Part shown: one piece after another, positions 913 to 16,459 of the stretch
Layout of the letters: each line of letters starts with the position of its first letter
How positions within the stretch are numbered: position 1 is the stretch's first letter
Source of the DNA: Candidatus Hodarchaeum mangrovi
GTDB lineage: Archaea > Asgardarchaeota > Heimdallarchaeia > Hodarchaeales > Hodarchaeaceae
Reading direction: 5' to 3'
Length of the DNA stretch: 24,620 bases
Assembly (NCBI GenBank): GCA_016839515.1
Contig: JAEOUE010000083.1
Span: 1 to 24,620 of the forward strand
The notes under the pieces: model-generated
What the model was told of the DNA's origin: nothing
The model's input: the letters and a program-made list of their open reading frames with translations, nothing else
Databases searched by the model: none
Position numbers and translations under genes: made by a program

Positions 913-1608
913 TTGCCAGTGGATAGCAATTATGATACTTTAATTTTCGATCTTGATGGAACATTGCATGATTCTAAAACATTAGTTCTTAAGGTTCATG
1001 AGACTTGTGTGACAGAATTGTCCTTTAAAATTAGCAAGGAAATATTTCTAGGGCTTTTTGGTAAACCTATTCATGAGGTTCGAAAAGAATTATCAGTAAT
1101 ATTAACTAATGAACAAATTTCTACATTCCTCGACTGTTATTTTACGAAATTATTAAAGATAGTCAATCAAGGACAAACCTGCCTTTTCCCTGGATCTGTT
1201 GAAGTGTTAGATAATTTAAAAGTAGCAGGTTGGAAATTAGCTATTTGCACAAATGTGCATACTCCTTTTATTAAGATTTATCGTGAAATTTTCGACCTTG
1301 ATAAGTGGTTTTCAGGAGAGGGTACTTCAATCTATTGGTCAGGAAAATCAGAACAAGAAAATGAAACCAAAGAATGGATGATTCAGCAAATATTAGAAGA
1401 ATTGGACTCGAAGGCAGCCATAATGGTTGGAGACCGTAAAGTGGATATTGATGCTGCACGGAAAAATAACATCGCAAGTATAGGATGCCTATATGGATTT
1501 GGTACAAAAGATGAATTGAAAGAGGCAGATTATTTCATAAATAACATTATAGAATTACCTACATTATTAAATGAAATAAATCTTAGAAAAAAGGTCACAT
1601 TAGATTGA
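913..1608 (+). CDS. HAD-family phosphatase (Gph/PGPase-like, subfamily IA)
   Basis: Motif I FDLDGT, motif II CTN, motif III K (ETKEW), motif IV GDRKVD, and GCLYGFG. TTG start. 3' end overlaps the convergent gene by 9 nt. Confidence 0.9.
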   Translation: MPVDSNYDTLIFDLDGTLHDSKTLVLKVHETCVTELSFKISKEIFLGLFGKPIHEVRKELSVILTNEQISTFLDCYFTKLLKIVNQGQTCLFPGSVEVLDNLKVAGWKLAICTNVHTPFIKIYREIFDLDKWFSGEGTSIYWSGKSEQENETKEWMIQQILEELDSKAAIMVGDRKVDIDAARKNNIASIGCLYGFGTKDELKEADYFINNIIELPTLLNEINLRKKVTLD

Positions 1609-2640
1609 AATCCCTTTTTTAAGTTTCTCGATTGTGTAAATAATATCAGTGTCTTCAATATCAGATGAAATATAGAATCGAAGTCCGTTTTTTCCTAAAG
1701 GAGCAATAAGAATATTTTCTTTCTCCAGAAACTTTAGGAGTGATAATCGATTTACCTCCTTTCCTAAATATGCGAGAACCATATTCGTTTGTACAGCTAA
1801 AAGATCTACATTAATACCAGAAATCTCATTAATTTCTTTAGCTAATCGTTTTGCCTTTTGATGATCGATTAAAAGTCGTGAATATAAATTTGGATCTTTT
1901 AATGCAACCAATCCACAAGCAGATAACCAACCAATTTTACGCATACCACCACCCAACATTTTTCGAAACCTGATTGCTTTTAGTATAAAATCTCTTGAAC
2001 CACATAACATTGATCCTACAGGGGCTCCCAAACCTTTCGAAAGAGAGAACATAACTGAATCAACATACTGGCTAAATGCTTTAACAGTCACGTCTGAATA
2101 AACTGCTGCATTGAATAACCGTGCTCCATCTAGGTGGATAGGAAGATGATATTTTTCAGATATTTCTCGGATTTCTTTAAATCGTTCAATAGGAACAACA
2201 ATACCTCCATATCGATAATGTGTATTCTCGAGGCATATTAAAGACGTTTTTGGATAATGTTGATCATATGGACGTATTGCTGATTCAATTTCTTGAGCTT
2301 TTGGAGCTCCATCCTGACTTCTGATTGTTTTCAACATAAGCCCAGCTACTGCTGCTGCACCACCTGTTTCAGAGGTACAGATATGGCTATTTTCCTCTAA
2401 AATTACTTCTTCTCCACGTTGAGTATGAGATAACAATGCAACAAGATTTCCCATAACACCACTAGGAAGGAATATTGCGCTCTCCTTCCCCAAAATTTTC
2501 GCAGCATATTCTTCCAGTTCTAAAGTTTTCGGATCTAAGTTATAAACAGCATCTCCTAAAGGAGATTTGAATGCTACCTCCATCATTTCAATACTTGGAG
2601 AAATATTAGTATCTGTTCGAAAATCAATTAGTTTTTGCAT
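1600..2640 (-). CDS. ltaE: Low-specificity L-threonine aldolase family PLP enzyme (deviant motifs)
   Basis: IDFRTDT, FLPSGVMGN, SHI..SE.GG, LENTH, HLDGARLFNA, PLP lysine in SLSKGLGAP, RKMLGGGMR, VQTNMV. Confidence 0.85.
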   Translation of the reverse strand: MQKLIDFRTDTNISPSIEMMEVAFKSPLGDAVYNLDPKTLELEEYAAKILGKESAIFLPSGVMGNLVALLSHTQRGEEVILEENSHICTSETGGAAAVAGLMLKTIRSQDGAPKAQEIESAIRPYDQHYPKTSLICLENTHYRYGGIVVPIERFKEIREISEKYHLPIHLDGARLFNAAVYSDVTVKAFSQYVDSVMFSLSKGLGAPVGSMLCGSRDFILKAIRFRKMLGGGMRKIGWLSACGLVALKDPNLYSRLLIDHQKAKRLAKEINEISGINVDLLAVQTNMVLAYLGKEVNRLSLLKFLEKENILIAPLGKNGLRFYISSDIEDTDIIYTIEKLKKGISI

Positions 2641-2860
2641 CTTCTAAGTCCCTACTAAGAACCAAAAAGAAATAATATAATTCTCGAATTATTTAATCAG
2701 GTCTTTTTCAGAAAAAACTTCCTTTGATAGTTTAGGAAATTTACTTGATAAATTTTGCAAAAAAAATGTTTTATGAGGATAGGAATCATTTCATCTGGTT
2801 AAAAATTGAATTTGATAGACACTATTTTAGCATTTTTAAAACAATTTAGGTGAAAATACA

Positions 2861-4189
2861 GTGAGAGAATTTAAAAGTGGAGTAGGTTTAGCAGATATAA
2901 CTCCACCAGTTGGATTACCAATGATGGGTTATTCTGAAAAAGAAAGAGATGTTGGAAATACTGGTATTCACGACCCATTGTATGCTAAAGCCCTTGTGCT
3001 TTCAGATGGAGATTGTAAAATAGCTATTGTCAATTGTGATCTTGCAGGTTTCGATCTTGAGTTATCGCAAAAAATTCAGAATTTAGTTGAATCAAATTCA
3101 GATATTCTTGGAAGAAATGTCTTACTTGGCTGCACACATACTCACTGCGGTCCAATAGGAACTATTCAAGATCAACGTTTGGAACCCTTACTCGAACGAT
3201 TTAAACCTTATTTCTCTTTTGTACAGCATTTACGAGAGGTTTATGCTTGGCAAATTGCTGGAACGGTTATCGAAGCAAATAATAGACTTACAAAGTCAAA
3301 AATAGGGACAGAGCCAGGAAATTTAAAATCAGGAGCAATTTGTACGAATCGAAATAATCCTGAGGGCCCGATGGATCCAGAGGTTCTAGTTATGAGAACT
3401 GATTCTCATCTGATGGCACCACAAGCAATATTAGCGAATTATTCCTGTCACCCTACTGTCATTAGTTACAAATCTATGGAAATTAGTGCTGATTATCCCG
3501 GATATGCAATGAAGTTTGTCGAACAGGCATTTCCTGGAACACAAGCTATGTACTCAAATGGGGCTGAAGGAGATATTAGTACTAGGTGGAGTCGACGCGA
3601 ACAGACATTTAAGGAAGCAGAAAGGATAGGAAGAATTTTTGCGTCAGAGATAGTAAAAACTGCTGCTCAGATAGAGACTAAAGAAGAAGTTACAATAAAA
3701 GCAATTTCAAAAGAAATTGAACTACCACTGAAAAAATTACCAAATTTAGAAGAGGCTAAAAAAATCGTTGAAGAGAAAACTAAAGAGCTTAATAAGCTAA
3801 AACAGGAAGGTGCATCTCATGGTGCATATCGTCGGGCATACACCACCTACCTTGGATCTACATTTCAATTGGAATATGTTAAAGCAGGCGCTCTGAAGTC
3901 AATGGGAGGTAAAATTAAAACATTTATTCAAGCATTTTCAGTTAATGATACTGGAATTGTGTCCATACCTGGAGAAATGTTTACTAATCTTCAATTAAAG
4001 ATTAAAAAGAGTTCCCCCTTTGACAAGACCTTTGTTATTGGACTAGCGAATGATTATATCGGGTACATTCTTGATAGTGAAATTTATGATAAAAATATTT
4101 ATGAATCATGGACCACAATTTTAGCTAGAAATGCAGGAGATCAATTAACTGACGAATCATTAAAACTATTAGCTTCATTGAATGAATGA
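2861..4189 (+). CDS. Neutral/alkaline non-lysosomal ceramidase-family metal amidohydrolase (copy 1)
   Basis: DITPP..PMMGY, GIHDPLYAKAL, THTHCGP, NYSCHPT, ISADYPG, NGAEGDIS, PGEMF, GLANDYIGY, YE. GTG start with AGGTGA RBS. No signal peptide. Confidence 0.85.
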   Translation: MREFKSGVGLADITPPVGLPMMGYSEKERDVGNTGIHDPLYAKALVLSDGDCKIAIVNCDLAGFDLELSQKIQNLVESNSDILGRNVLLGCTHTHCGPIGTIQDQRLEPLLERFKPYFSFVQHLREVYAWQIAGTVIEANNRLTKSKIGTEPGNLKSGAICTNRNNPEGPMDPEVLVMRTDSHLMAPQAILANYSCHPTVISYKSMEISADYPGYAMKFVEQAFPGTQAMYSNGAEGDISTRWSRREQTFKEAERIGRIFASEIVKTAAQIETKEEVTIKAISKEIELPLKKLPNLEEAKKIVEEKTKELNKLKQEGASHGAYRRAYTTYLGSTFQLEYVKAGALKSMGGKIKTFIQAFSVNDTGIVSIPGEMFTNLQLKIKKSSPFDKTFVIGLANDYIGYILDSEIYDKNIYESWTTILARNAGDQLTDESLKLLASLNE

Positions 4190-4193
4190 AAAA

Positions 4194-4874
4194 TTAATTT
4201 CTTTTTTTTAATTTCTTTAGTATATCTGGTAGTTGAAGAATGTCCGTAATGGTATAATCAGCTAATTTGGCTTCGTCTGGTGCAAATCCGTATAAACATC
4301 CAATACTAACAAGGTTATTTTCTTTTGCAGCTATAATATCATGTCTATGATCCCCAATGACAACAGCTTGCCTTGTTTTAAAGGATTTTAAGATTTGTTG
4401 AATCATCCATCCTTTCGACTTATCAGGGTATAACCCAATCCAATAGAATTCATCAAAATAATCATTGAGGTTATACATTGTTCTGATTTTTTCAAGATAA
4501 TGTGTTGGAGCATTTGTGCAGATAGCCATATTCCATTTTTCTCCCCTAAGTTGCCTGAGAACCTGTACTGTATTTGGAAATAAAGCACCTTCTTCCATTC
4601 CAACTTGCTTAATAAATTCCTGTTCTACACAATCAAGGAGAATATCAGCATTTTTCCTTCCAAATTCTAATGCTAAATTCTCAGAAAACTCTGAATTGCT
4701 TGTCCCAATTTGTTTCACGACAAAAAGTATGTCGTCCTCAGTAAAATTTGTATTCCATGTATCATTTAGTCTTTTGAAACATTTTCTATATACTGGAAAG
4801 ATAAATCGGCTAGTATCAATCAGAGTTCCGTCTAAATCAAAAATTAAGGTATTTAGCTGACTTTCTTCTGACAT
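4194..4874 (-). CDS. HAD-family phosphatase (paralogue of 913..1608)
   Basis: TLIFDLDGTL, LFP, AICTN, KGWMIQQIL, GDHRHD, SIGCLYGF. AGAGG RBS upstream. Confidence 0.9.
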   Translation of the reverse strand: MSEESQLNTLIFDLDGTLIDTSRFIFPVYRKCFKRLNDTWNTNFTEDDILFVVKQIGTSNSEFSENLALEFGRKNADILLDCVEQEFIKQVGMEEGALFPNTVQVLRQLRGEKWNMAICTNAPTHYLEKIRTMYNLNDYFDEFYWIGLYPDKSKGWMIQQILKSFKTRQAVVIGDHRHDIIAAKENNLVSIGCLYGFAPDEAKLADYTITDILQLPDILKKLKKRN

Positions 4875-4985
4875 AAATGAACCTCTAAAGTGTAAAAATT
4901 TTAATTAACATAAATGATTCATGGATATCAACTAAAGATATAGTTTTGAGATTAGATGTGAATACTTGGAGAAATAATTTGAATT

Positions 4986-5774
4986 TCAAAGCTTATCAAT
5001 GATTTCGTTTACACTAGCCCCTTCATGAACAATTTTACAGGCAGCTTCTATCATTTTTCTTGGGTTCTTCCTTTGCCAAAGATTTCGACCAATACATATT
5101 CCAGCGCCTCCTCCTTTCATCGCTCCTTCTATTGTTAACATTACATCCTTATCAGTACCCATTGTTTCCCCACCTGCGATTACAACAGGAACAAGTGCCG
5201 TTGAAGTCACTTCTCGAAACGTTTCAGGAGAACCTGTATAATTTGTTTTAATCAAATCAGCCCCTAATTCAGATGCTATTCTAGCAACAAATTTAACATT
5301 TTCTGAGCTGTATGGATCAACCATTTTTGCTCCTGCTGGTAGAAATTCTCCAAGTAAGGGGATTCCATATTCTTGACATTCTTCATTAACTTTTCCAAAT
5401 TCACTAATACCCTCTAAATCATACAGTCCTCCAATGTTTACCGTAAATGCGATGGCATCAATACCTAATTTAATTACATTTGAAACTGAGGAAATTACAG
5501 GTTCATATGGGAATATTTCACTTTTTACATTAGTATTTGTTATTCTAAGGATGATTGATAATTCTCCAAGGAGGTTAGTAGGAATAAACCGCATAATACC
5601 TGGATTAATAAGAATAGCATCAGCCCCTCCTTCATGAGCAGCTATAATCGTCTGTTCAATGTTTTCAATGCCATTAATTGGCCCCATGTATGCTCCATGA
5701 TCCATAGGAACTATTACGATTTTTTTTGAGGATTTATCAAACAAACGATTTAACCTAATTTTCTTTCCAATCAT
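4986..5774 (-). CDS. DhnA-type (archaeal class IA) aldolase family protein
   Basis: MIGKKIRLNR, VPMDHG, GADA, Schiff-base lysine in GADLIKTNY, PVVIAGG, GICIGRNLWQ. Confidence 0.9.
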   Translation of the reverse strand: MIGKKIRLNRLFDKSSKKIVIVPMDHGAYMGPINGIENIEQTIIAAHEGGADAILINPGIMRFIPTNLLGELSIILRITNTNVKSEIFPYEPVISSVSNVIKLGIDAIAFTVNIGGLYDLEGISEFGKVNEECQEYGIPLLGEFLPAGAKMVDPYSSENVKFVARIASELGADLIKTNYTGSPETFREVTSTALVPVVIAGGETMGTDKDVMLTIEGAMKGGGAGICIGRNLWQRKNPRKMIEAACKIVHEGASVNEIIDKL

Positions 5775-6131
5775 TTTTCATTTACCTTCTTATTGGAATG
5801 CTTTTATTAAAATTAAATTTAGTGATATGAAGATAATCTTTTTGTTACTAATTCTTAGAACAAAATAATTTTTTTATGAGAATTAATATCTTTTCTGATG
5901 GAAGTTAGCACAAGAGAGAGAAGGAGAAATACCTAAATTTTTTATTTCAAGATTTACTTAAACTGAAAAAGGATTAGGGATATTACAATTCTCCTTTATT
6001 AATGTGCAACATCATCTGTATTGATGTTATATAATATTAAGAAAAAATTGGAATATTATGCTTTTAACAAAAATTTAAAAATTCGGATATGGTAAAATTT
6101 TTCTCATCTTGAAAAGGGAGTCATTTTACAG

Positions 6132-6449
6132 ATGAAAATCCAAAATAGAGATTCCCATAATCAAAGCAATACTATATTCGATATAGTACTTCACTTTGGG
6201 ATTGTGTTTACATTTAGCATAATATCGAGTGGTGTAATCTATATCTGGACTGAATCATTAATAGGGTTTCTTTTTGTAGGTATAACATCATTATTTTGGG
6301 GAATTAGTTCAATAATTATGTCTCGTTTTAACCCCGAAACTGCAAAATACTTTATATATAACAAAAAGTGGATTCATCAGGGGTATTTTTACATTCTTGA
6401 TGGAATTATCCTAATTTTATTAAGTGTTATACTTCTTGTCCTACAATAG
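6132..6449 (+). CDS. Small hypothetical membrane protein (about 3 TM helices)
   Basis: ATG start with GGGAG upstream. Three hydrophobic stretches. No recognisable family. Confidence 0.6.
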   Translation: MKIQNRDSHNQSNTIFDIVLHFGIVFTFSIISSGVIYIWTESLIGFLFVGITSLFWGISSIIMSRFNPETAKYFIYNKKWIHQGYFYILDGIILILLSVILLVLQ

Positions 6450-6569
6450 TCGATTTGAATAAAATATCCCTTTTTTCATATTAATTACAAAAATTAGAGA
6501 ATTTCTTATTAGTGAATTTTCATTTGTAAATATTTAATTCTAGATAAGAAATTTCAACTTTTATCAACA

Positions 6570-6584
6570 GAAAACATTTAATAA
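6570..6584 (+). promoter_or_regulatory. Putative BRE/TATA of the IIC-IID operon (GAAAACA TTTAATAA)
   Basis: Purine-rich heptamer followed by TTTAATAA, about 20 nt upstream of a perfect inverted repeat. Confidence 0.4.
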
Positions 6585-6603
6585 CAAAATATAGCGTGAA
6601 TTG

Positions 6604-6629
6604 TGTTCTTTTGCTAAAACAAAAGAACA
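6604..6629. promoter_or_regulatory. Perfect 10-bp inverted repeat TGTTCTTTTG-N6-CAAAAGAACA (candidate operator or leader hairpin)
   Basis: Read directly: arms 6604-6613 and 6620-6629, upstream of PTS IIC. Function is inferred. Confidence 0.55.
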
Positions 6630-6641
6630 AAGACAGTCTCG

Positions 6642-6691
6642 TTTTCTTCATTAAATTTTCGTAGTTCTAACCTCAAAAATGATGAAGAAAA
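6642..6691. repeat. Second inverted repeat TTTTCTTCAT-N30-ATGAAGAAAA upstream of IIC
   Basis: Arms 6642-6651 and 6682-6691 are perfectly complementary and extend by one G-U and one A-U pair. Confidence 0.45.
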
Positions 6692-6741
6692 ATAAAAGTT
6701 GAAATAATACCAAAAATAAGAATATTAGAGGAGTTAACGAT

Positions 6742-7515
6742 ATGGATCTTATTCCAACAATTTTGATTTTAATAATAGCTTTTATAGTAGGCATCGAAGG
6801 TTGGTTCGGCAGTCCATTTGTATTATGGAGCCCTCTTATTAACTCTACTCTTGTAGGAATTGCCTTAGGTGATCCTGCAGCTGGAGTATATATCGGATCA
6901 ATTCTTACCGTTGTCTACTTTGGAGTTGTTCAAATTGGTGCCTCTGCCCCCCCTGATCAAAGCGTAGCTGGAATGGTTGGCGCTGCTGTTTTTATCGAAG
7001 CAGGTGGAGTAGTTGGTGGAGATTTGACGGTTGGTTTAGCTGTCGCAACAGCTGCTGCAATATTGGGGACATACTTCAACATTGCTACCCAAACAATTAA
7101 CACTGTTTGGGTTCATCTTGCGGATGGTGCAGCTGAGAAAGGTGCTACTGGAAGAATCCAACTATACAATGCATTAGGATTGCCTGTTTTCGGAACATTT
7201 AAAGCAGCTTCTGTAGCTGTTTGGCTAATTCTTGCTGACGATATAATAAACTTCGTGAATGGACTTCCAGCTTGGATATTCAACGGATTGTCCGCAGCTG
7301 GTGGTTTGTTGACATGTCTTGGTATTGGTATATTAATTAGCATGATGTGGCGCCGAGATTTAGTTCCATGGTTTATAATTGGATTTACATTTGCATCATA
7401 TGTCTTTTGGGGAACTGCATTCAATCTTGTTGCAAGTACATTGGCTATCGCTGGTCTGATCGCAGCTTTCTATTGGGCACGAACACAACCAAGTGCTCCA
7501 GCTAAAGGAGGTTAA
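6742..7515 (+). CDS. PTS mannose/fructose/sorbose-family IIC component
   Basis: PLINSTLVGIALGD, IGASAPPD, VHLAD..AEKG, PAWIFNGLSAAGGLL..LGIGIL, PWFIIGF. Highly hydrophobic. GAGGAG RBS. Confidence 0.93.
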   Translation: MDLIPTILILIIAFIVGIEGWFGSPFVLWSPLINSTLVGIALGDPAAGVYIGSILTVVYFGVVQIGASAPPDQSVAGMVGAAVFIEAGGVVGGDLTVGLAVATAAAILGTYFNIATQTINTVWVHLADGAAEKGATGRIQLYNALGLPVFGTFKAASVAVWLILADDIINFVNGLPAWIFNGLSAAGGLLTCLGIGILISMMWRRDLVPWFIIGFTFASYVFWGTAFNLVASTLAIAGLIAAFYWARTQPSAPAKGG

Positions 7516-7518
7516 AAA

Positions 7519-8370
7519 ATGGCAGACAAACCTGTTTATCCACTATTTAAATTATTCTGGAGAACCTGGCCTCTACAATGGACACTTAACTATGAACGAA
7601 TGGAAGCATTAGGCTACTGTTTTGCCATGATTCCTGTTCTACAGAAATTATATAAAGGCGAAGAATTAAATGAATGGTTGAAACTGCACCTTGAGTTTTA
7701 TAATACAACACCATATACTCATCCTCTCATTCTTGGGATAGATGTTGCACTTGAAGAACAAGGAGCTACAAAAGATACAGTTCGTGCAGTAAAAACTGGA
7801 TTGATTGGTCCTTTAGCAGGCATTGGAGATGCAGCTTATTGGTTCACCCTAGTACCAATCTGCTTTGGAATTGGTGCAAGCATTGGTAAAGATGGAAACA
7901 TCCTTGGTCCTATTATTGCTTGGGCACTCTGGATTCCACTTGCTTGGGGTTCAAAATATTGGCTTTTAATACAAGGATACAATTATGGATCAGAAATCGC
8001 TACTGCATTGCAAAGCGGCCAGATTGAACAATTCAAAACGATATTGAACGCATTTGGTTTAGGTATGGCTGGAGCTTTGACCGCAATATTTGTAAGTGTT
8101 CAAACTCCTTTGAAGCTCTATGGAGAATTCGAAGGAGAGACTGTAGTATTATTCAGCCTGCAGAGTACACTTGATTCATTTATAGGTCCAGCACTATTAT
8201 CATTGGTGTTTGTCCTGTTTACATTCTGGTTATTGCGGCGTGGATGGTCTGTTCTAAAAGTCTTTGCCATTATCTGGGTTGTCGGTTTAGTTCTCGGTGT
8301 TGTGGGAATAATTGGTGGCGGTGGACTACTCGGAGAATTTGATATACCATTCATTGGAAAGCTGAACTAG
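7519..8370 (+). CDS. PTS mannose/fructose/sorbose-family IID component
   Basis: NYERMEALG, HLEFYNT.P, ILG...ALEE, KTGLIGPLAGIGDA, GNILGP, LQSTLDS. Starts 3 nt after the IIC stop, with a GGAGG RBS. Confidence 0.95.
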   Translation: MADKPVYPLFKLFWRTWPLQWTLNYERMEALGYCFAMIPVLQKLYKGEELNEWLKLHLEFYNTTPYTHPLILGIDVALEEQGATKDTVRAVKTGLIGPLAGIGDAAYWFTLVPICFGIGASIGKDGNILGPIIAWALWIPLAWGSKYWLLIQGYNYGSEIATALQSGQIEQFKTILNAFGLGMAGALTAIFVSVQTPLKLYGEFEGETVVLFSLQSTLDSFIGPALLSLVFVLFTFWLLRRGWSVLKVFAIIWVVGLVLGVVGIIGGGGLLGEFDIPFIGKLN

Positions 8371-8376
8371 TACCCC

Positions 8377-8427
8377 CCCTATAATCTTTTTTTGATTGTA
8401 GGGATCTCTCTCCCTTTTTTTTCTTTT
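8377..8427 (+). terminator. Putative terminator after IID: hairpin(s) plus oligo-T
   Basis: Stem CCCTATAATC-T7-GATTGTAGGG (8377-8403, one G-U pair). Alternative short stem GGGA-N6-TCCC (8401-8414) followed by T8 and CT4. Confidence 0.6.
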
Positions 8428-8478
8428 ATATAAATTAATAAAATTTCTTTATTATCAATTCAGATAGCAGTTTGTGAA

Positions 8479-9576
8479 TTGAGTATGGCGATTGAGCATG
8501 ATATAACAAATATTGTCTCAAAAACTCACATGTACAAAGAAATTTTTCAACAACCAAATATTATTAACCAAACTCTTCAGAATGCATCTAAATTATTCCC
8601 TGATTTCTTAAATCTTTTTGAAAAAAACGATTATAATCTCAGTATCTTTGGTAGTGGGACAAGCTATCATGCTGGAATTGCAGGATCGATAGCTTTTACC
8701 AATATAATTGGTAAATATGTCCCAATTGATCATGCTTCTGAATGGATATATCGATATCCACGAAAAGGCCATAATCTGGGTGTTGCAATAGCGATTAGCC
8801 AAAGTGGAGAAAGTGGTGATGTAATAAGAGCAGCCCAAAACGCAAAAAGTCAGGGTTTAAAATTAGTATCAGTTACAAATGTTTTAGGATCTACTCTTGA
8901 TGAATTAGGGGATTTAACTTTTATAACTCCTGCTGGAGAAGAAAAAGCAATTGCTGCCACGAAATCATATACATCTGCATTAGCTCTATTGCTTGAATGG
9001 GCAATTAAATTAGGACATGAACACCACATCCAACAAGAGAGTCTTTCTGAAGAATTAAGAAATGTTTCCTATAAAATGGAAAAGATCCTAATCAATTCGG
9101 AAAAAAGTATGAAGGAACTTACAGATTACATATCTAATTATAATATTGTATACTTTTTAGGCACAGGATCAAATTTTTCAACAGCACTAGAAGGAGCAAT
9201 GAAATTAAAGGAAACAGGTAACGTCTATGCTGAAGGATTTGGATTTAGAGAGTTTATGCATGGTCATCTACAACTAGTTTCAGAGGAAACTCCAATTATA
9301 ATAGTTTTATCAGGAGAAGAAGACCTATCGGTTATAAAATCTGGAATAGAACGATTAGGGAACTTAAAAGGATCCCTTTTTACTATTACTCAAAGTAAAG
9401 AACAAAATATAGAAACAACTATAACCCAGAATCAAATGTCACTGGGAGAGTATGTTGACCCATTAATTTCTCCATTAACCCTAGTTCTTCCATTACAGCT
9501 CCTAGCATGTTACAATTCCAAGAAGAGAAATTTAAATCCAGATAAACCTACAAAGTTATCAAAAGTCACTTTATAA
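8479..9576 (+). CDS. Double-SIS-domain protein, GlmS isomerase domain only: probable amino-sugar-6-phosphate isomerising deaminase (GlmD/NagB-II-like)
   Basis: HMYKEIFQQP, GSGTSYHA, SQSGE, VTN..GSTL, AGEEKAIAATKSY, EGAMKLKE, EFMHG, NPDKPTKLSKVT. No N-terminal Cys glutaminase domain. Start is TTG 8479 or ATG 8485. Confidence 0.88.
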   Translation: MSMAIEHDITNIVSKTHMYKEIFQQPNIINQTLQNASKLFPDFLNLFEKNDYNLSIFGSGTSYHAGIAGSIAFTNIIGKYVPIDHASEWIYRYPRKGHNLGVAIAISQSGESGDVIRAAQNAKSQGLKLVSVTNVLGSTLDELGDLTFITPAGEEKAIAATKSYTSALALLLEWAIKLGHEHHIQQESLSEELRNVSYKMEKILINSEKSMKELTDYISNYNIVYFLGTGSNFSTALEGAMKLKETGNVYAEGFGFREFMHGHLQLVSEETPIIIVLSGEEDLSVIKSGIERLGNLKGSLFTITQSKEQNIETTITQNQMSLGEYVDPLISPLTLVLPLQLLACYNSKKRNLNPDKPTKLSKVTL

Positions 9577-9594
9577 TGAAAAAATAATCTCAAT

Positions 9595-10242
9595 CTATTT
9601 AATTATTGATAATATATCTAATAGGTTTTTTACCTTCACTCCCGTATATTTTGCCATTTCAGGGATTTCTCTATTCTGATAATAAATAAAATGGATCCCA
9701 GCTTTATCACTTGCCAATAAATCAGTATATGAATCTCCAATATAGACACATTCATTTGCTAATACATCAAATCGTTTTAAAGCTTTAAGAAAAAGGTCAG
9801 GTTCTGGTTTTGGTTTTTCTCCATTAGTACCAAATATATATTCAAAATAATTGAGTAATCCAAGCTGTTTAATCATTTTTTTCGAAGTTATTTCTGAACC
9901 ATTTGTTACCACGCCTAATTTATAATTTCTTGTAAATAATTCCTTTACAAGCTTTTCAGCATTAGCAATTGGTTTTAATTTTGGAATCATTTCTTTTTCA
10001 AAACATGTGTCTACCATGCTAGTCAATTTGTGAACAAGTTCTGGTGATGGCGTACTCAAACCAGCAATTCCTTCAACCATTTCTCTTGTACTTTTATGAA
10101 GTAACTTATTGAATTTCTCTCTAGGAGGATTTATATTAAAATAATCAACAAAAACAGTTGTGACTGCGCCAAACCAAAGGTCTATACTATCAGTTAATAC
10201 GCCATCCATATCAAATAAAACCAAGGAAATATTGGGGAACAT
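9595..10242 (-). CDS. HAD-family phosphatase (third copy, more distant from the other two)
   Basis: LFDMDGVL, VVTN, KPKPEPD, IGDSYTD. I prefer the ATG at 10242 (MFPNISL..., GGTG upstream) over the track start at 10290, because motif I then sits near the N-terminus. Confidence 0.88.
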   Translation of the reverse strand: MFPNISLVLFDMDGVLTDSIDLWFGAVTTVFVDYFNINPPREKFNKLLHKSTREMVEGIAGLSTPSPELVHKLTSMVDTCFEKEMIPKLKPIANAEKLVKELFTRNYKLGVVTNGSEITSKKMIKQLGLLNYFEYIFGTNGEKPKPEPDLFLKALKRFDVLANECVYIGDSYTDLLASDKAGIHFIYYQNREIPEMAKYTGVKVKNLLDILSIIK

Positions 10243-10404
10243 TCTGGGGCACCAACGAGCATCTACAGTTTGTATAGAAATTCTCAACATAACTCAAAAT
10301 AATTTTGTTTTAAGAATGTTAATGATTGAATCTGAAAGAAATCCTTACTAATCTGGATAAACCATTCTCAAAATTCCCCTATTAAATCTAAAATTTTCGC
10401 GAAG

Positions 10405-10416
10405 AAATCCTTTTTA
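10405..10416 (+). promoter_or_regulatory. Putative BRE/TATA (AAATCCTTTTTA) of the aminotransferase operon
   Basis: Same AATCCTTWW pattern and similar distance to the start codon (about 48 nt) as at 854-865. Confidence 0.4.
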
Positions 10417-10463
10417 GAAGGTAATTATTGATATATCACGATTTCGATTAAGAGGAAAATACA

Positions 10464-11588
10464 TTGAGTGATAAGAAATGGAAAGTTCCATTTATTCAAC
10501 CTTTTGTTTCTGATGAAACAAAAAATAGAGTATTAGAAATACTAGAACGTGGGAAAGAAACTGGTTCCTTCACAGTCGGTGTAGAAACTCAAATATTTGA
10601 AGAAAATCTAGCAAAATTTTGTAAGGTTAAACATGCAGTTACATTACATTCAGGTACAGAAGCATTATTTGCTGCTCTTATTGCAGCTAAGATCAAACCT
10701 GGAGATGAAGTTATAACAACTTCCTTAACATTTATTGCGACAATAGAAGCTATCTGGCAGGTTAATGCAAAACCAGTTTTAGCAGATATTCACCCAGAAT
10801 ACTATACAATTGAACCTGATTTGGTGAAGAAAGCAATTACAAAAAAAACTAAAGCAATTATTCCAGTTCATATATATGGACAAGCAGTAGATATGGATCC
10901 AATAATGGAGCTTGCAGCTGATCATAATCTTTTTGTTTTAGAAGACGCATGTCAAGCTTTAGGAGGACGGTATAAAAAAGAAACCATTGGTAGTATTGGG
11001 GATGCTGCAGCTCTCAGTTTTCACCCTCAGAAAAATTTAACAGTCTGTGGAGATGGTGGTGCTCTTCTTACAAACCGTACAGATATTGCTGAAATAGTCG
11101 AAATGATAAGGGATCATGGACGCTTACGAAATCAAGGTTATGATCATCGAATATTAGGTTATAATTTTCGGCTAGGAGAGATTAGAGCAGGAATTGCTAA
11201 TGTTGCCTTACCTCATGTTGAAGGGTGGAATATCAGAAGAAGAGAAATCGCAAAACAATATATGGATGGAATTTCTTCTACTCACACTATTTGTCCTAAA
11301 GAAGCACCATACTCCTACCATGTATATGACTATTACGAAATTCAAACCCAGGATAGGGACGGACTTAGAGAAGAATTAACTAAAAAAGGAATTAAAACTG
11401 ATATTCAGTATCCCAAAGCATGTCATCAACAAGTAGTCTGGGACTATCTAGAAAAATCTAAAATCAATCTTCCAGTTACTGAAAAACTCATCCCAAATAT
11501 TCTTACACTTCCCTCATTCCCAGATCTTACAGACGAACAAGTATCTTATGTAATTGAAACAATAAATAACTACTATAAGGTTAAATAA
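10464..11588 (+). CDS. DegT/DnrJ/EryC1/StrS-family PLP sugar aminotransferase
   Basis: SGTEAL, GDEVITT..TF.AT, AIIPVHIYGQ, EDACQALG, PLP lysine in SFHPQKNL..CGDGG, GYNFRL, LTLP. TTG start with GAGGA RBS. Confidence 0.93.
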   Translation: MSDKKWKVPFIQPFVSDETKNRVLEILERGKETGSFTVGVETQIFEENLAKFCKVKHAVTLHSGTEALFAALIAAKIKPGDEVITTSLTFIATIEAIWQVNAKPVLADIHPEYYTIEPDLVKKAITKKTKAIIPVHIYGQAVDMDPIMELAADHNLFVLEDACQALGGRYKKETIGSIGDAAALSFHPQKNLTVCGDGGALLTNRTDIAEIVEMIRDHGRLRNQGYDHRILGYNFRLGEIRAGIANVALPHVEGWNIRRREIAKQYMDGISSTHTICPKEAPYSYHVYDYYEIQTQDRDGLREELTKKGIKTDIQYPKACHQQVVWDYLEKSKINLPVTEKLIPNILTLPSFPDLTDEQVSYVIETINNYYKVK

Positions 11589-11657
11589 CTCACAATGATT
11601 ATAAATCGTTTCGTATTAGCAAAATCAAAAGAATATATAGTAAAGGAGTTATAACAT

Positions 11658-12749
11658 ATGTCTAAATTAAATATTGGTATGTTAGGATATGGATGGATGG
11701 CGCGAGTCCACACATTTGGATTAAAAAATATAAATGTAAATATAGATCCTAGTCAATCAATAAATCTTTTAGCTGTAAGTGGACGTACAGAATCCAAATT
11801 AAAAGCAATGGCTCAACAATATGGGTACAAGAAATATTTTTTTGATTGGAAGCAAGTTGTTCAAGATCCTGAAACGAACCTTATTGACAATGTTATGCCT
11901 CCCAATGTTCATAAAGAGCCTGCAATAATGACCGCAGAGGAAGGCAAAGCTCAGATATGTGAAAAACCGATTGCCCATACAACTCCTGATGCTGTTGAAA
12001 TGGTAAAGGCTGTGGAAAAAGCGAAGAGCCCAAATATGGTGATGTTTAATTATCGTTATTTACCTGCGATTATGAGGGCAAAAAAATGGGTGGAAGAAGG
12101 TAACTTGGGTGAAATTTTTCAATGTAGATTTCTTTATACAAAACAGAGTCATTTAAATCCATTAAGACCTTTTAGCTGGAAAGATGATCCAGTGATCTCT
12201 GGTGGGGGAGCTCTTATTGATTTGGGGGTTCATGTTGCTGATTTAGTGAGATATTTAGTCGGTGATGTCATAAGAGTTGTCTCTTCCAATGATCGATGGA
12301 TTCATTCGAGGCCTGAATCAAAGGGATCAATAATCCAAAAGGAAATAAGAACTGAAGATGCTGCTATTTCAATTTTAAAATTTAAGAAAGGTTATTTAGG
12401 AATCTTGGAAGCTAGTAAAACAAGTACAGGACATCCAAATACCGTGAGAATTGAAATTCATGGTTCATTAGGTGCACTAATGTGGAATAGTGAACGAACA
12501 CATGAATTGTATCTGCATCACCAAGAAGATGGAGAAAACAATTGGCGAGCAGAATACTTACCTTACCCATACGATGATAGCTATGGGAGAATTGGTTTTG
12601 GACATGTAAATGCATTGGCTAGCTTTATAACTCAATTAGAGACAAAAAATCCCTCATACCCGAGTTTTAAAGATGGATTAGAAGCTTTGAAAATAATTGA
12701 AGCTTCTTATCGTTCTGCCAAAGAAGAAAGGTGGATAAATATTGACTAA
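11658..12749 (+). CDS. Gfo/Idh/MocA-family NAD(P) oxidoreductase
   Basis: Rossmann GMLGYGWMARVH, CEKP, FNYRY.PA, GGGALIDLGVH, EIHGSLG. Confidence 0.93.
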   Translation: MSKLNIGMLGYGWMARVHTFGLKNINVNIDPSQSINLLAVSGRTESKLKAMAQQYGYKKYFFDWKQVVQDPETNLIDNVMPPNVHKEPAIMTAEEGKAQICEKPIAHTTPDAVEMVKAVEKAKSPNMVMFNYRYLPAIMRAKKWVEEGNLGEIFQCRFLYTKQSHLNPLRPFSWKDDPVISGGGALIDLGVHVADLVRYLVGDVIRVVSSNDRWIHSRPESKGSIIQKEIRTEDAAISILKFKKGYLGILEASKTSTGHPNTVRIEIHGSLGALMWNSERTHELYLHHQEDGENNWRAEYLPYPYDDSYGRIGFGHVNALASFITQLETKNPSYPSFKDGLEALKIIEASYRSAKEERWINID

Positions 12750-13341
12750 AAGACAAAAAATAGACCCATTTGTAATTCAATATGATGAAAAATCAAAAAT
12801 GCTGAGTTCTTATTCAGTTAAGAATGATAAAAAGTTAAGTGATATTTCAGATTTTTTTTACAATCAACAAGAGGTAAAAATGATATTAGATAGTGGAAAA
12901 GATCCCTTAGTGTATACATATCATGACAAAGTCCAACCTGAAATTCCTGGAGAATTTAGTTTTGGTATAACAATTATTTACCCTGGAACGATCGGGGAAG
13001 AGTTTTATATGACACGAGGACATTTTCACGGGAAAAATGATGGTGAATTCTATATGGGCCTTGAGGGAGAAGGGATATTAATTTTGGAAGACCAAGACAC
13101 AAGAAAAGCACAAGCACTATATTTTACAAGAAATTCCCTCCCTTACATCCCTGCTGGTTATGGCCATAGGGTTGTAAATGTTGGAAAAATACCTTTAATC
13201 TTTTTAACTGTTGAAGCTGCGGCAGGATCACATGATTATGAAATCATACGGAAAGAAGGATTTGGTGTTTTAGTACTAAAGGATCCCAATTCACAAAAAG
13301 GGTATAAAATTACTCCTAATCCTTCCAGAAAGAAAATTTAA
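12742..13341 (+). CDS. pgiA: Cupin-type (archaeal) glucose-6-phosphate isomerase family protein
   Basis: TIIYPGTIGEEFYMTRGHFH, EFY.GLEGEG, YIPAGYGHRVVN.G, HDYE: the His/His/Glu/His cupin metal set of Thermococcales PGI. TTG start overlaps the upstream gene by 8 nt. Confidence 0.88.
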   Translation: MTKRQKIDPFVIQYDEKSKMLSSYSVKNDKKLSDISDFFYNQQEVKMILDSGKDPLVYTYHDKVQPEIPGEFSFGITIIYPGTIGEEFYMTRGHFHGKNDGEFYMGLEGEGILILEDQDTRKAQALYFTRNSLPYIPAGYGHRVVNVGKIPLIFLTVEAAAGSHDYEIIRKEGFGVLVLKDPNSQKGYKITPNPSRKKI

Positions 13342-13342
13342 G

Positions 13343-14686
13343 ATGGTAATTAAAATGATTGAGATCGGAACGCATGAATTTGAAATAAATCCCAAAATAG
13401 GTCAACCTATGGGAGGGTATTGGCGTTATAATAAATTCATTAAAGGAATGCATGATCCAGTTTTTGGAAATATTCTCATCATATCAAGCAATGAATTAAC
13501 CTACTCTCTAGTTGTTTTAGACGAACTAATTTTAGATAGTAAATTAGTTGAAGAAATGAAGCAGGAAATAGAGAAACGAACAAAAATTCCATTTAAGAAT
13601 ATCACAATACATGTTAATCATACACACAGTACATCAGTGACTGTTCCAGAGCCATCTGATGATGATTACCCTTTCTTACTTCCTGAGGATTGGGATGTCC
13701 AAGAAATGCGAAGATTGACAAAAGAAAGAAGGAAGGGATTAGTTAAAATAGTTTCAGCCGCATCTGAGATTGCTTCTCAACAAATGAATCCTGTAAAGAT
13801 TGGTTATATGGAAGGTCATGCAGAGGATATAGGAAGAAATCGCAATCGACCATTAGATGGACCAGTAGATAATAGTGTACCCGTACTCCGCTTTGAATCG
13901 ACTATTGGAAATCCTCCAGTTATTTTAGCTAATTTTGGTACTCATCCCACAATTGCACCACCTGAAAATTGTTTAATAAGTGGAGATTTAGTAGGTTCGA
14001 CAAGAAAAACTGTAAAAGATCTTTTGGGTTACCATACGAAATTTATTTATACAACAGGTGCTGCAGGAGACGTATCAACCCGTTTCACAAGAAAAAGTAG
14101 CAGTTTTGCCGAAGTAGACCGTATGGGTCATATCTTAGGTGCTGAAATTGTAAAAACCGCCGAGAGAATTACAACCTTTGAAGAAGAAATTAACTTCCAC
14201 GTAAAAGCTGAAGAAATCGAATTACCTGTAAGGAAATTACCCTTATTAAATGAAGCAACACAAATATTCCAGCAGGTAAAAAAAGAATTAGAAGATGCTC
14301 AGGAAGCAAAAAAAGATCTTGGAGTAATAAAAAAGTTAACAGAAAACTTAGAAGGTGCAAGTGTTCAGAAAAGATTTGCTTCCTTAAGTAAACATGAGAA
14401 ATTAGCATTTTCAAAGGAAAAATTCTTGGTTCCACTACAGGCTGTTCGTATTGGAGATGTTAAGTTGATTTTCCATCCTTTTGAGCTTTTCTCTGAAATT
14501 GCTCTAAACATTAAAGCAAAAAACCCTAAAACTATAGTAATTGGCTATTCAAATAATTGGTTAAGCTACATCCCTACCCAATATGCATTTGATGAAAATT
14601 CTTATGAAACTTATATTACTTTAACTACCCCTGGTTCTTATAAAACATTTGAAGATGCAGTTATAAAATTATTAAGAAGCTTATAG
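13343..14686 (+). CDS. Neutral/alkaline non-lysosomal ceramidase-family metal amidohydrolase (copy 2)
   Basis: INP..GQPMGGY, GMHDP, NHTHS, NFGTHPT, ISGD, GAAGDVSTR, PFELFS, GYSN...SYIP, YE. Alternative ATG at 13355. Confidence 0.82.
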   Translation: MVIKMIEIGTHEFEINPKIGQPMGGYWRYNKFIKGMHDPVFGNILIISSNELTYSLVVLDELILDSKLVEEMKQEIEKRTKIPFKNITIHVNHTHSTSVTVPEPSDDDYPFLLPEDWDVQEMRRLTKERRKGLVKIVSAASEIASQQMNPVKIGYMEGHAEDIGRNRNRPLDGPVDNSVPVLRFESTIGNPPVILANFGTHPTIAPPENCLISGDLVGSTRKTVKDLLGYHTKFIYTTGAAGDVSTRFTRKSSSFAEVDRMGHILGAEIVKTAERITTFEEEINFHVKAEEIELPVRKLPLLNEATQIFQQVKKELEDAQEAKKDLGVIKKLTENLEGASVQKRFASLSKHEKLAFSKEKFLVPLQAVRIGDVKLIFHPFELFSEIALNIKAKNPKTIVIGYSNNWLSYIPTQYAFDENSYETYITLTTPGSYKTFEDAVIKLLRSL

Positions 14687-14708
14687 AAATATTCACCTAA
14701 AAATAACT

Positions 14709-15197
14709 TTACTTCTTCATTTTGCTGATTTCATTCATTAATTCATATGATTTATCATCTGGTAACATTTTTGCAGTTAATTTAATTCCCAATTCGTTTA
14801 ATTTTTCATATGTAGAAATTTGGTTAGGTAAAACCCAAATTCCTCTTCCAATCTTGTAAGCGTCTTTCTGTCCTGACATATTCCCTAAATTAACCTGGGG
14901 TAATTTAATATCGTGTTCTACAAGGCCTAAAGCATCTTCAGGGTATTTACAAATTATCATTATATTGTTATCATTCCATTCAGGTTTTTTTAGCTCATTT
15001 ACAGCATTTTCAATTGTGAGTGTCTTAACTATTATTCCAGATGGGGCTCCCATTGGTACCATTGCAGCTATCATAGGGTTATTTGCAACTTCATCATTTA
15101 CTACAAAGACGGTATCGGCCTTTACTCGTTTAATCCATGCCATTCCTACTTGACCATGGATTAACCTATCATCAATTCTTACATGAACGATCGCCAT
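14709..15197 (-). CDS. PTS mannose/sorbose-family IIB component
   Basis: VRIDDRLIHGQV (phospho-His), VVND, VNLGNM, LPDD. Confidence 0.95.
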   Translation of the reverse strand: MAIVHVRIDDRLIHGQVGMAWIKRVKADTVFVVNDEVANNPMIAAMVPMGAPSGIIVKTLTIENAVNELKKPEWNDNNIMIICKYPEDALGLVEHDIKLPQVNLGNMSGQKDAYKIGRGIWVLPNQISTYEKLNELGIKLTAKMLPDDKSYELMNEISKMKK

Positions 15198-15610
15198 TAC
15201 TCAGATAAACGCTCCTTTATCCATTTTTTAACATCTAGAATGCCTTTATGGCCAGAATTTAATGCTATTGTTTTTAATTCTGCTAGTTTTTTAGCTTTTC
15301 TTTGTAATGTTACTTCAAGTAGCATTGGAAGATTAATTCCTGTCACTAATTCTAGATCATCATTATTATATGCCATTTTCCCCGCAACATTAGAAGGAGT
15401 CCCTCCAAAGAGATCAAGAAGAATCAACACTCCATCTTCTTTATCACATTTTTTTATTACTTTAATAAATTCGTCTTGAAGAGTTTCAGGACTTACTCCC
15501 TCTTCTAAAACCAAGGAAAATACTAATTCTTGTTTTCCAATAATTAATTCCATTGCATTAATTAATCCTTCTGATAATGTTCCGTGAGATGCAATAATTA
15601 GACCAATCAT
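15197..15610 (-). CDS. PTS mannose-family IIA component
   Basis: IIASHG (phospho-His), LLDLFGGTPSN, VTGINLPMLLE. TAATG stop/start overlap with IIB. Confidence 0.95.
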   Translation of the reverse strand: MIGLIIASHGTLSEGLINAMELIIGKQELVFSLVLEEGVSPETLQDEFIKVIKKCDKEDGVLILLDLFGGTPSNVAGKMAYNNDDLELVTGINLPMLLEVTLQRKAKKLAELKTIALNSGHKGILDVKKWIKERLSE

Positions 15611-15643
15611 TTCTAAACCTTCGTATTAAAATAATATTCTTCA

Positions 15644-16459
15644 TCAATTTTTCAACTTATGGTATCCTAAATTCAATCTACCACTTTTTAAAGGTACAGA
15701 TTTTGGACTAGCTTGAATAGGATGGTAAAACAATTTTGTAGAAGCGATACAATAACTTTCCATTGCAAGAATTTCAACAAAATCTGTTTGTGAACCATTT
15801 TCAACACTTGTGAGTATAGTTTCACAGAGTTCTTGCGATGATCTTCTATAACTCCCTTTACCAAGAATGCTTCCTCGGATACGGAAGGGATTGATCAAAT
15901 TTTTTTTGTTATCAATTGTCCTAATTCCTTCCTGTTTCCAACCAAGGGTAATTTGATCTCCGAATCCCCATTTACTTTTTAAAAAATGCATTTTTAAAGA
16001 AATAAATGCATTTAGTAACTGATAATCTTGAATTTCGTAATTTACTTCAACAAAATTAAGAAATCGAATCATATCAATATTGTACCAGAAACTTAGAGCA
16101 TATTGAGAATCAATAACAATTAATCGCCTTTTAGTAATCAATAAATGTTGGTTGCCATAGCTGACATTCTTTGGGGAGACAAGAATTATTCTACCAATAT
16201 ATTTGAGATTTTCATCTGCAAACAAGAGTGGAACTGCTTTTTTTGCTATAAAACCAGTTTTATATCTAAGAAAATATGATGATCCATAATTCAATAAATC
16301 ATCCTTAATTGTCAGTAGTCTTCCTGTAATATCAACATCCTGTTTAACCGATAAATCAAGTGTGTAAACATCTAGTTTGGGAAATCCGTTTTCAATGATC
16401 GGAATAATTTCTTTCGCCTGACCAAGTTTAATTGTGATGGAAACCTCGTTATTATTCAT
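15644..16459 (-). CDS. Hypothetical protein, probably co-transcribed with IIA-IIB
   Basis: 271-aa ORF with AGGAG RBS, 33 nt upstream of IIA. LLITKRRLIVID resembles PH-like beta strands (weak). Confidence 0.7.
   Translation of the reverse strand: MNNNEVSITIKLGQAKEIIPIIENGFPKLDVYTLDLSVKQDVDITGRLLTIKDDLLNYGSSYFLRYKTGFIAKKAVPLLFADENLKYIGRIILVSPKNVSYGNQHLLITKRRLIVIDSQYALSFWYNIDMIRFLNFVEVNYEIQDYQLLNAFISLKMHFLKSKWGFGDQITLGWKQEGIRTIDNKKNLINPFRIRGSILGKGSYRRSSQELCETILTSVENGSQTDFVEILAMESYCIASTKLFYHPIQASPKSVPLKSGRLNLGYHKLKN

Follow-up and report, generated by a model that had tools for sequence, protein, structure and literature searches.

In Bacillus subtilis, the enzymes NtdC, NtdA and NtdB (KabC, KabA and KabB in B. 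cereus) synthesize kanosamine by C3 chemistry on hexose 6-phosphates, according to the accessible part of PMC8788734. In bacterial amino-sugar loci, such as the E. coli aga genes for N-acetylgalactosamine (GalNAc) and galactosamine with AgaS, or those with NagB-II/GlmD, a four-part Man-type phosphotransferase system (PTS) stands beside a deaminase/isomerase of the SIS family. For archaea, the available portion of a 2024 preprint describes the PTS as absent apart from some halophiles (10.1101/2024.02.29.582781), and a 2021 survey of Asgard transporters, as far as its accessible part goes, reports no PTS protein in the genomes it examined (PMC7997004). Here we analyse a contig of 24,620 nucleotides (nt) from the Asgard archaeon Candidatus Hodarchaeum mangrovi (JAEOUE010000083.1; hereafter the window, meaning the whole stretch), on which both arrangements meet. 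Members of the Gfo/Idh/MocA, DegT and HAD families lie side by side at 9595-12749, as in the Ntd set (NtdC and NtdB being likened by family only), and a four-part Man-type PTS accompanies an SIS protein.

These genes belong to an island of about 20 kb, from position ~900 (913) to 20726, which holds a complete Man-family PTS (IIA, IIB, IIC, IID, EI and HPr), two ceramidase-fold Zn-amidases and a set of sugar enzymes. An earlier note on this DNA had proposed that the cluster degrades an N-acylated 3-amino or 2,3-diamino sugar imported by the PTS. Pfam and NCBIfam scans of the window's open reading frames (ORFs) recovered every gene family which that note had listed, and agreed with it that no ORF of at least 80 amino acids (aa) matches a NagA, kinase, nucleotidyltransferase or glycosyltransferase family. 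We read the island as a PTS-dependent module, complete in itself, that breaks down an N-acylated amino hexose by running kanosamine chemistry in reverse; taken whole, this reading seems to us evenly poised between right and wrong. Its general part, PTS-dependent catabolism of some N-acylated amino hexose, is more probable than the whole, and a specifically 3-amino or 2,3-diamino substrate is less so. The island itself is real, selected and rare, and plausibly encodes a new pathway in an unexpected host.

Gene content and conservation of the island

As expected of the Man family, IIC (6742-7515, + strand; PF03609, 1.2e-49) and IID (7519-8370, +; PF03613, 7e-79) are separate genes, accompanied by a Man-type IIA (15197-15610, -; PF03610, 1e-24), a sorbose-type IIB (14709-15197, -; PF03830, 5e-43), Enzyme I (EI; 18740-20473, -; PF02896, PF05524 and PF00391) and HPr (20478-20726, -; PF00381, 4e-24). 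The histidine motifs ASHG at the N-terminus of IIA, RLIHGQV in IIB, TSH in EI and GLHARPA in HPr, which we take to be the PTS phospho-sites, are all retained. EI and HPr lie just beyond the range covered by the earlier note, which ended at 15610, and the entire phosphorelay is encoded on the spot. We infer that this PTS would mediate phosphoenolpyruvate (PEP)-dependent uptake with phosphorylation at C6. The genome carries a single IID copy, whose relatives are 93, 89 and 81% identical and then drop to at most 41%, and IIA reaches 120 bits with NF040761 (AgaF), under the cut-off of 130. The HPr frame (minus strand, 20478-20774) contains no ATG, GTG or TTG early enough to include the usual N-terminal strand, and the in-frame residues upstream (IILQSVEVT) resemble genuine HPr sequence; the true start is probably a codon other than these three, a few codons upstream, and may be an Ile codon.

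Between the IIC-IID and IIB-IIA genes lies one tightly packed same-strand unit of four genes: a DegT-family pyridoxal phosphate (PLP) aminotransferase (10464-11588, +; PF01041, 1.6e-107), a Gfo/Idh/MocA NAD(P) oxidoreductase (Gfo; 11658-12749, +; Pfam match, EKP motif), a cupin-type phosphoglucose isomerase (cPGI; 12742-13341, +; PF06560, 5.5e-24) and the ceramidase-fold Zn-amidohydrolase CER2 (13343-14686, +; PF04734, 2.5e-12). Gfo and cPGI overlap by 8 nt, and 2 nt separate the cPGI stop from the CER2 start. We infer from these family assignments that the unit would encode exactly four steps, namely deacylation, transamination, ketoreduction and isomerisation, and we favour the catabolic direction for the DegT/Gfo chemistry because an amidase has no place in biosynthesis.

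The pairing of a C3 aminotransferase with a 3-keto-sugar reductase/dehydrogenase, as predicted in the earlier note, is supported by the motifs and relatives of both proteins. DegT keeps its PLP lysine motif (SFHPQK), and its best matches in the Protein Data Bank (PDB) are 7b0d, QdtB (3frk) and 2oga, with WbpE at 4e-55; most of its best-scoring named relatives of solved structure are of the C3 kind, if, as we assume, QdtB, the 2oga chain and WbpE are C3 aminotransferases. The best NCBIfam and PDB match of Gfo is levoglucosan (3-)dehydrogenase (PDB, 6e-56); it also matches IolG and scyllo-inositol dehydrogenases and the archaeal UDP-N-acetylglucosamine (UDP-GlcNAc) 3-dehydrogenase model (1e-26). 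Gfo has relatives at 73% and 61% identity; outside a small clade, Gfo is at most 37% and DegT 47% identical to other proteins. The cPGI aligns end to end (residues 8-197; 9e-34) with the cupin phosphoglucose isomerase (PGI) of Pyrococcus furiosus, scores 85 bits against a PF06560 cut-off of 20.7, and retains the His/His/Glu/His metal site typical of the class (TRGHFH for TxGHFH, E, and GHR), in line with its assignment as a PGI.

Directly after IID stands a protein of 365 aa with two SIS domains (8479-9576, +; NF001484, 7e-71, GlmS residues 251-596), which aligns over its whole length with the isomerase domain of E. coli GlmS (1moq) and has no glutaminase domain. The segments SGTSY, SQSGES, KLKE, HG and the C-terminal LSK are kept; these presumably correspond to GlmS T302/S303, S347/Q348/S349, K485, E488, H504 and K603. 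The predicted architecture is that of a stand-alone hexosamine-6-phosphate deaminase/isomerase of the GlmD/NagB-II kind, as had been suggested, and the protein stays under the equivalog cut-offs of both (NagB-II, 119 bits against 430; GlmD, 78 against 580). Its match to the FrlB deglycase model is slight (6e-5, 22 bits against 430), which places it outside the Frl/Gfr class. Catalytic residues are intact throughout the soluble enzymes of the island. In the genome as a whole, 91% complete, no NagA exceeds its cut-off (best 24.6 bits against 225.65) and no classical PGI (PF00342) was found, so that the island brings its own route to fructose 6-phosphate (F6P). In two sister families (f3 and f4; G024-G040) all 14 genomes carry a cupin-type PGI, as against 0 of 21 in the window's genus.

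The two amidase candidates are CER1 (442 aa; 2861-4189, +; PF04734, 6e-24; invariant HxH, R, H, E, Y, Y) and CER2. Together with a paralog on contig C29 of the same genome, they share invariant HxH, NRN, HPT, E and Y with the Zn and catalytic site of Pseudomonas aeruginosa neutral ceramidase, and their assignment to ceramidase-fold amidohydrolases held up in both cases. They measure 442-447 aa, compared with 646-688 aa for the solved ceramidase chains, and the alignment to 2zws stops at residue 480 of 646, the end of the catalytic domain. Of the features of neutral ceramidases they possess the N-terminal catalytic Zn domain and lack the C-terminal domain; no hydrophobic signal suggesting a signal peptide was seen at either N-terminus, and the ceramidase equivalog score is 35.5 bits against a cut-off of 1200. 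CER1 and CER2 are best described, from these features, as putative cytoplasmic ceramidase-fold amidohydrolases and not as ceramidases. The CER2 subfamily is nearly an orphan, its closest proteins outside a small clade being at most 28% identical. The paralog on C29 (4016-5350) is paired with a second cupin-PGI (5366-6040), at 46% and 49% identity to the window's CER2 and cPGI respectively, so the pair was duplicated as a pair. It adjoins a Condensation/AATase-like acyltransferase (2475-3923) and a TrmB-like regulator in a block at 2475-6040, and no PTS, DegT or Gfo gene lies beside it.

A metagenome scan with Gfo recovered two contigs (L118 and L119, 83.5% nt identity) from a second lineage. 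Both share the order IID, SIS, HAD2 on the opposite strand, DegT, Gfo, cupin and CER2, and L119 continues through IIB, IIA and the orphan gene u271 as in the window. Ratios of nonsynonymous to synonymous change (dN/dS) lie between 0.05 and 0.27, indicating purifying selection in 10 of 10 genes compared, with 0.10 for CER2. The cluster is more than a chance assembly, because its gene order is kept and every compared gene is under purifying selection; as a locus it forms a selected unit. Each of 20 public sequencing runs, from seven studies, contained at least half of the words sampled from positions 6700-15700.

Ceramidase-family genes recur beside amino-sugar genes in other Asgard genomes. We examined 21 Asgard ceramidase-family (CER) loci, one in genome G047 and 20 further ones. 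In G047 (contig C18, 7903-13746), IIA, IIB, an SIS_2 protein (PRK02947), a fused IIC-IID, NagA and a CER1-like gene (32% identity) stand together; the NagA is bona fide, at 405 bits against a cut-off of 226. In G126, DegT, Gfo and CER form a tight trio on one strand, in G122 these three genes fall within 5 kb, and in G290 a CER gene directly follows NagA. These recurrences, beside DegT and Gfo or beside NagA and a Man-type PTS, tie the predicted amidase to amino-sugar metabolism. A quick tree, in which two ORF calls that ran too long were cut back to the C-terminal 470 residues and locus L181 was left out, places the G047 homolog among the nearest rows to CER1 and the DegT/Gfo-linked proteins of G126 and G122 in a clade apart from CER2; CER1, CER2 and the NagA-linked proteins are loosely grouped with low support. 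In G122, a gene for the beta subunit of methyl-coenzyme M reductase (contig C214, 26-1420; locus L170) adjoins the DegT/Gfo/ceramidase-like group.

Two wider searches for synteny were discarded. Scanning genome contigs with the ceramidase genes returned relatives of at most 27% identity in unrelated contexts, apart from three DegT adjacencies (3 of 80 distant bacterial CER loci). With DegT, across 400 genomes of the phylum, the best non-self match was 47% identical, and the seven best loci had Gfo-DegT in five cases and no PTS, CER, SIS or cupin gene.

Proposed route, objections and alternatives

In the proposed route, EI, HPr, IIA and IIB would relay phosphate to the IIC/IID permease, which would deliver the sugar as its 6-phosphate, and cytoplasmic CER1 and CER2 would hydrolyse its N-acyl group or groups. 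DegT would then transaminate a 3-amino-3-deoxy-hexose 6-phosphate to the 3-keto sugar 6-phosphate, reversing NtdA chemistry; Gfo would reduce this to glucose 6-phosphate or glucosamine 6-phosphate, reversing that of NtdC; and cPGI would convert glucose 6-phosphate to F6P. The SIS protein, presumably co-transcribed with IIC-IID, would deaminate and isomerise a 2-amino sugar 6-phosphate, likewise to F6P, and the DhnA/ADH-synthase-type class I aldolase (DeoC/DhnA; 4986-5774, -; PF01791, 1.3e-38; NF005556, 272 bits against 241) may link the product to triose phosphates. Alternatively, cPGI could isomerise kanosamine 6-phosphate, a reaction described for the aminoshikimate pathway in the accessible part of PMC8788734. 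A broader scenario, that some Asgard archaea acquired an entire bacterial Man-type PTS and built around it a new pathway from CER sugar N-deacylases and reversed NtdC/NtdA enzymes, which would let them feed on 3-acylamino or 2,3-diacylamino hexoses released in sediments from the envelopes of bacteria and archaea, we consider doubtful. In that scenario, the duplicated pair of cupin and ceramidase-like genes might be a counterpart of NagA/NagB that is similar in function without being homologous.

Several observations weigh against the catabolic module as a whole. The comparison with NtdA is the first: DegT matches it at 2e-49 and 171 bits, as against 295 bits for a better-scoring relative, and with 374 aa compared to 441 it aligns to NtdA residues 66-431, the extra N-terminal domain of NtdA being absent. 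QdtB, WbpE and the perosamine synthetases, most of its closest named relatives, are presumably users of nucleoside diphosphate (NDP)-sugars, and the top match, 7b0d, bears the name of a scyllo-inositol transaminase. The logic of the route is also strained, since the SIS protein would give F6P directly: a PGI would be needed only in the branch with a C2 hydroxyl, and a single 2,3-diamino substrate would thus leave genes unexplained. The route gives no step to the three HAD phosphatases, which together with Gfo and DegT resemble the NtdABC set of biosynthesis equally well, nor to the threonine-aldolase-like enzyme, u271 or the phosphoribosyltransferase-domain protein. The island's genes are split into at least seven short units on alternating strands with no single operon, and 17 of the 21 Asgard CER loci have no amino-sugar neighbours. 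Left of 20726, the island was not found in 21 congeners apart from weak partial DNA matches, and comparative support is thin, with only a handful of close relatives in 5.8 billion proteins. Finally, our literature searches found no ceramidase-fold enzyme acting on a sugar and no non-lipid role for short homologs or archaeal neutral-ceramidase homologs. Nor did they find a catabolic pathway for kanosamine or diacetamido sugars, and those on PDB 7B0D and PF04734 returned nothing relevant.

The claims of the earlier note thus fare unevenly. Its route as a whole is favoured by the enzyme residues, the packing of DegT-Gfo-cPGI-CER2 and the CER recurrences, and is left with three phosphatases that fit an NtdABC set too. 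Its substrate, with the two N-acyl groups it would carry, is a conjecture. The note had named loss of synteny in relatives as a refutation, and the outcome is divided, the island having been found in none of 21 same-genus genomes and being syntenic in one sister lineage. The gene-neighbourhood search it proposed came out mixed in the same way, with CER beside DegT and Gfo, or beside NagA with or without a Man-type PTS, in some Asgard genomes and without such neighbours at most loci.

One alternative divides the island into two unrelated modules. The PTS and SIS protein would serve ordinary hexosamine or glycated-amine (Amadori/Heyns) uptake, and DegT-Gfo-cupin-CER2 would act on a substrate that does not pass through the PTS, for example an N-acyl aminocyclitol (inosamine) or a free amino sugar. 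The closest IID relatives that bear a name, 36-38% identical, are labelled as PTS for fructoselysine/glucoselysine or GalNAc, the inositol-type names among the matches of DegT (7b0d being glutamine-scyllo-inositol transaminase) and Gfo fit a cyclitol, and no PTS lies near the DegT-Gfo-CER trios of G126 and G122. Against this division, the PTS genes enclose the DegT operon, with IIC/IID on one side and IIB/IIA on the other, as they also do in L119; that operon includes cPGI, an enzyme of sugar 6-phosphates whose ligands are intact; and the SIS protein matches GlmS at 7e-71 compared with 6e-5 for FrlB. We judge this explanation unlikely.

The CER proteins could instead cleave amides that contain no sugar, for instance those of lipids, peptides or N-acyl amino acids, in which case the cluster would be a nutrient-scavenging mosaic without a common pathway. 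The fold is known from lipid amidases only, the strand organisation is itself mosaic, and the neighbours at the 21 Asgard CER loci are mixed (MFS 4, DegT 2, Gfo 2 and Amidohydro_1 2 among 123 ORFs). A mosaic does not sit well with a gene order conserved under purifying selection or with a cupin-CER pair duplicated as a pair. CER genes also accompany DegT/Gfo in no fewer than two distinct clades of the CER tree, as well as NagA/PTS, and by our own estimate (4 copies in 4 Mb) DegT would be expected in ~1% of random ~8 kb stretches. We regard this second alternative as distinctly unlikely.

A biosynthetic island, which we think a shade less probable still, would equate Gfo, DegT and HAD2 (a HAD-IA phosphatase divergent from DegT; 9595-10290, -; HAD_2, 7e-37) with NtdC, NtdA and NtdB. 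It would make kanosamine or a 2,3-diamino sugar from hexose 6-phosphate supplied by the PTS and cPGI, with the SIS protein making glucosamine 6-phosphate, and its product would be an antibiotic or envelope component. All three NtdABC-type families do stand side by side, the roles of NtdA, NtdB and NtdC being described in PMC8788734; a catabolic route fed by a PTS has little use for three phosphatases, and an acyltransferase-like gene adjoins the cupin-CER pair on C29. Yet biosynthesis has no use for the hydrolytic CER2 that is translationally packed with Gfo and cPGI, and the SIS protein is without a glutaminase domain, which synthesis would require. Pfam scans found no acyltransferase, glycosyltransferase, nucleotidyltransferase or exporter in the island. 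HAD2, kept in L119 at 75% aa identity, is on the opposite strand and faster evolving (dN/dS 0.27 versus 0.07), and the CER homologs of G047 and G290 adjoin a catabolic NagA.

That the island is not archaeal, its contig being bacterial DNA binned in error or a chimera of assembly, as the rarity of PTS in archaea and the 6% estimated contamination of this 91% complete metagenome-assembled genome might suggest, is very improbable, given a genus-conserved flank, junction-spanning contigs, matching composition, and Man-type PTS loci elsewhere in the phylum. Native flank (21319-23510, both strands) lies in the window's right 3.9 kb, where an MFS transporter gene (+; orthologs 85-89% aa identity) and a PI-PLC-like gene (-; 74%) mark the island's right edge; their orthologs are adjacent in one same-genus genome (G012) and ~3 kb apart in another (G007). 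Contigs from two runs of two other studies, X2 (17264-21552) and X3 (19823-21584), bridge the junction from EI/HPr to MFS, and with the conserved flank they make a binning or assembly artefact unlikely. The contig's GC content is 33.1% versus 32.9% for the genome and its tetranucleotide correlation 0.995 (rank 79 of 112 contigs), weak evidence of origin, as binning itself selects similar composition. The genome encodes ribosomal protein S28e and actin (437 bits), hence an Asgard-type archaeal host, and the G047 locus is flanked by RING/Vps23-core-like, WD40 and GvpD/KaiC-type ATPase genes. The IID, ceramidase and cupin PGI families were each found in none of the 21 congeners; with the closest outside proteins so distant, the transfer was not recent or its donor is unsampled.

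Other genes of the window and related PTS loci

The remaining HAD-IA phosphatases are HAD0 (913-1608, +; HAD_2, 3.7e-23; DxDGT motif) and its paralog HAD1 (4194-4874, -; HAD_2, 4e-19), 36% identical. Between HAD0 and CER1 lies a PLP-dependent threonine-aldolase-like enzyme of the GntG family (Beta_elim_lyase; 1600-2640, -; PF01212, 3e-92; NF041359, 360 bits against 230). The DhnA-type aldolase has a 35% identical paralog on contig C291. Six window ORFs match no family, among them a small hydrophobic ORF of 105 aa upstream of IIC that may not be a gene (6132-6449, +; neither Pfam nor NCBIfam), u224 (16700-17374, +) and u271, upstream of IIA-IIB on their strand (15644-16459, -; no Pfam match). 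Three relatives of u271 (73, 28 and 24% identity) occur among 1.84 billion representative sequences. A model from the four sequences reached a predicted local distance difference test (pLDDT) score of 63 and gave weak PH/GLUE-like matches, all with E above 0.001 (best, Vps36 PH domain, 8e-3); a single-sequence model (pLDDT 30) was useless and was set aside, and Atlas hits of u271 were below 0.9.

A phosphoribosyltransferase (PRT)-domain protein with an N-terminal extension of ~110 aa (17682-18521, -; PF00156, 1.6e-12) scores 119 bits against PRK08558 and 58 bits against purR_Bsub, both under the cut-offs, and is a possible PurR-like regulator. A 9-mer screen of 11 intergenic regions for a common operator motif returned AT-rich words only, and tRNA and Rfam scans of the window found nothing, hence no clue to an integration site. 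The contig's right end (24307-24620) holds the start of an ABC-ATPase gene with a Walker A motif and shares a 314-bp overlap of 97% identity with the end of contig C119, where the two contigs probably join; the many weak matches to this segment in the genus are to other ABC ATPases.

Among the 400 sampled genomes of the phylum, Man-type IID occurs in 7, the EI N-domain in 17 (6 of 85 genera) and the ceramidase family in 58; three of the EI N-domain matches carry in-frame TGA stops. Finding EI in 17 genomes contrasts with the absence of PTS proteins stated, for the genomes it examined, in the accessible part of PMC7997004. A second PTS locus of another family lies elsewhere in the same genome (contig C290, 4330-16895; locus L163), with EIIC-GAT (7689-9290), EIIA_2 (14875-15327) and a second EI (12838-14565) that is 38% identical to the EI of the window. 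Its companions are a DegT-family aminotransferase (418 aa), a DeoC-like aldolase, a class II aldolase, a Zn-dependent alcohol dehydrogenase and BtpA, and the EI genes of four or five congeners are closer to this second EI than to that of the window. In another Asgard genus (g61; G285-G290, loci L141-L143 and L145-L147), whose small genomes of 1.2-2.3 Mb have one to four IID matches each, IID and IIB adjoin a levoglucosan-dehydrogenase-like Gfo at four loci (L141, L142, L143 and L147). L143, the one locus of this genus scanned with Pfam, has a fused IIC-IID and a DUF7916 protein after Gfo. These loci may represent a separate PTS-linked 3-keto-sugar pathway.

Comparison with known systems

3-Amino and 2,3-diamino sugars occur in lipid A variants and O-antigens, in S-layer glycans and in the N-glycans of archaea. 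If our reading is true, the island would provide the first catabolic route for such sugars and the first non-lipid function for the short ceramidase-family proteins that are widespread in prokaryotes, and PEP-dependent group translocation would operate in Asgard archaea.

The Ntd/Kab pathway is biosynthetic and bacterial; here its families are accompanied by a PTS and a PGI, by a deaminase and by a pair of amidases, a combination that points to the reverse direction, and the island's DegT does without the NtdA N-terminal domain. Compared with bacterial Man-type PTS loci, the host is an archaeon, no bacterial IID found exceeds 41% identity, and ceramidase-fold proteins with DegT/Gfo take the place of the NagA/AgaA deacetylase, tagatose-type kinase and matching aldolase. 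The canonical NagA/NagB pathway for GlcNAc is likewise without its NagA, in the window as in the genome.

The pairing of a Gfo/Idh/MocA 3-dehydrogenase with a DegT C3 aminotransferase is shared with the synthesis of UDP-GlcNAc3N and UDP-2,3-diacetamido sugars, where GnnA/GnnB and WbpB/WbpE serve as the UDP-sugar C3 dehydrogenase and aminotransferase. Those enzymes act on UDP-sugars beside nucleotidyl-, acetyl- and glycosyltransferases, none of which is in the island. With the neutral ceramidases of P. aeruginosa (2ZWS) and human (4WGK), CER1 and CER2 have in common the catalytic domain, Zn ligands and catalytic residues, and differ in being shorter, in having neither C-terminal domain nor signal peptide, and in standing in a sugar-phosphate context. 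Haloferax volcanii also combines bacterial-type EI, HPr and EII in an archaeon, and the EI N-domain family matches its genome, used as a control; its fructose PTS is of the Fru type, whereas the PTS of the island is of the Man type, with IID, and belongs to an Asgard genome.

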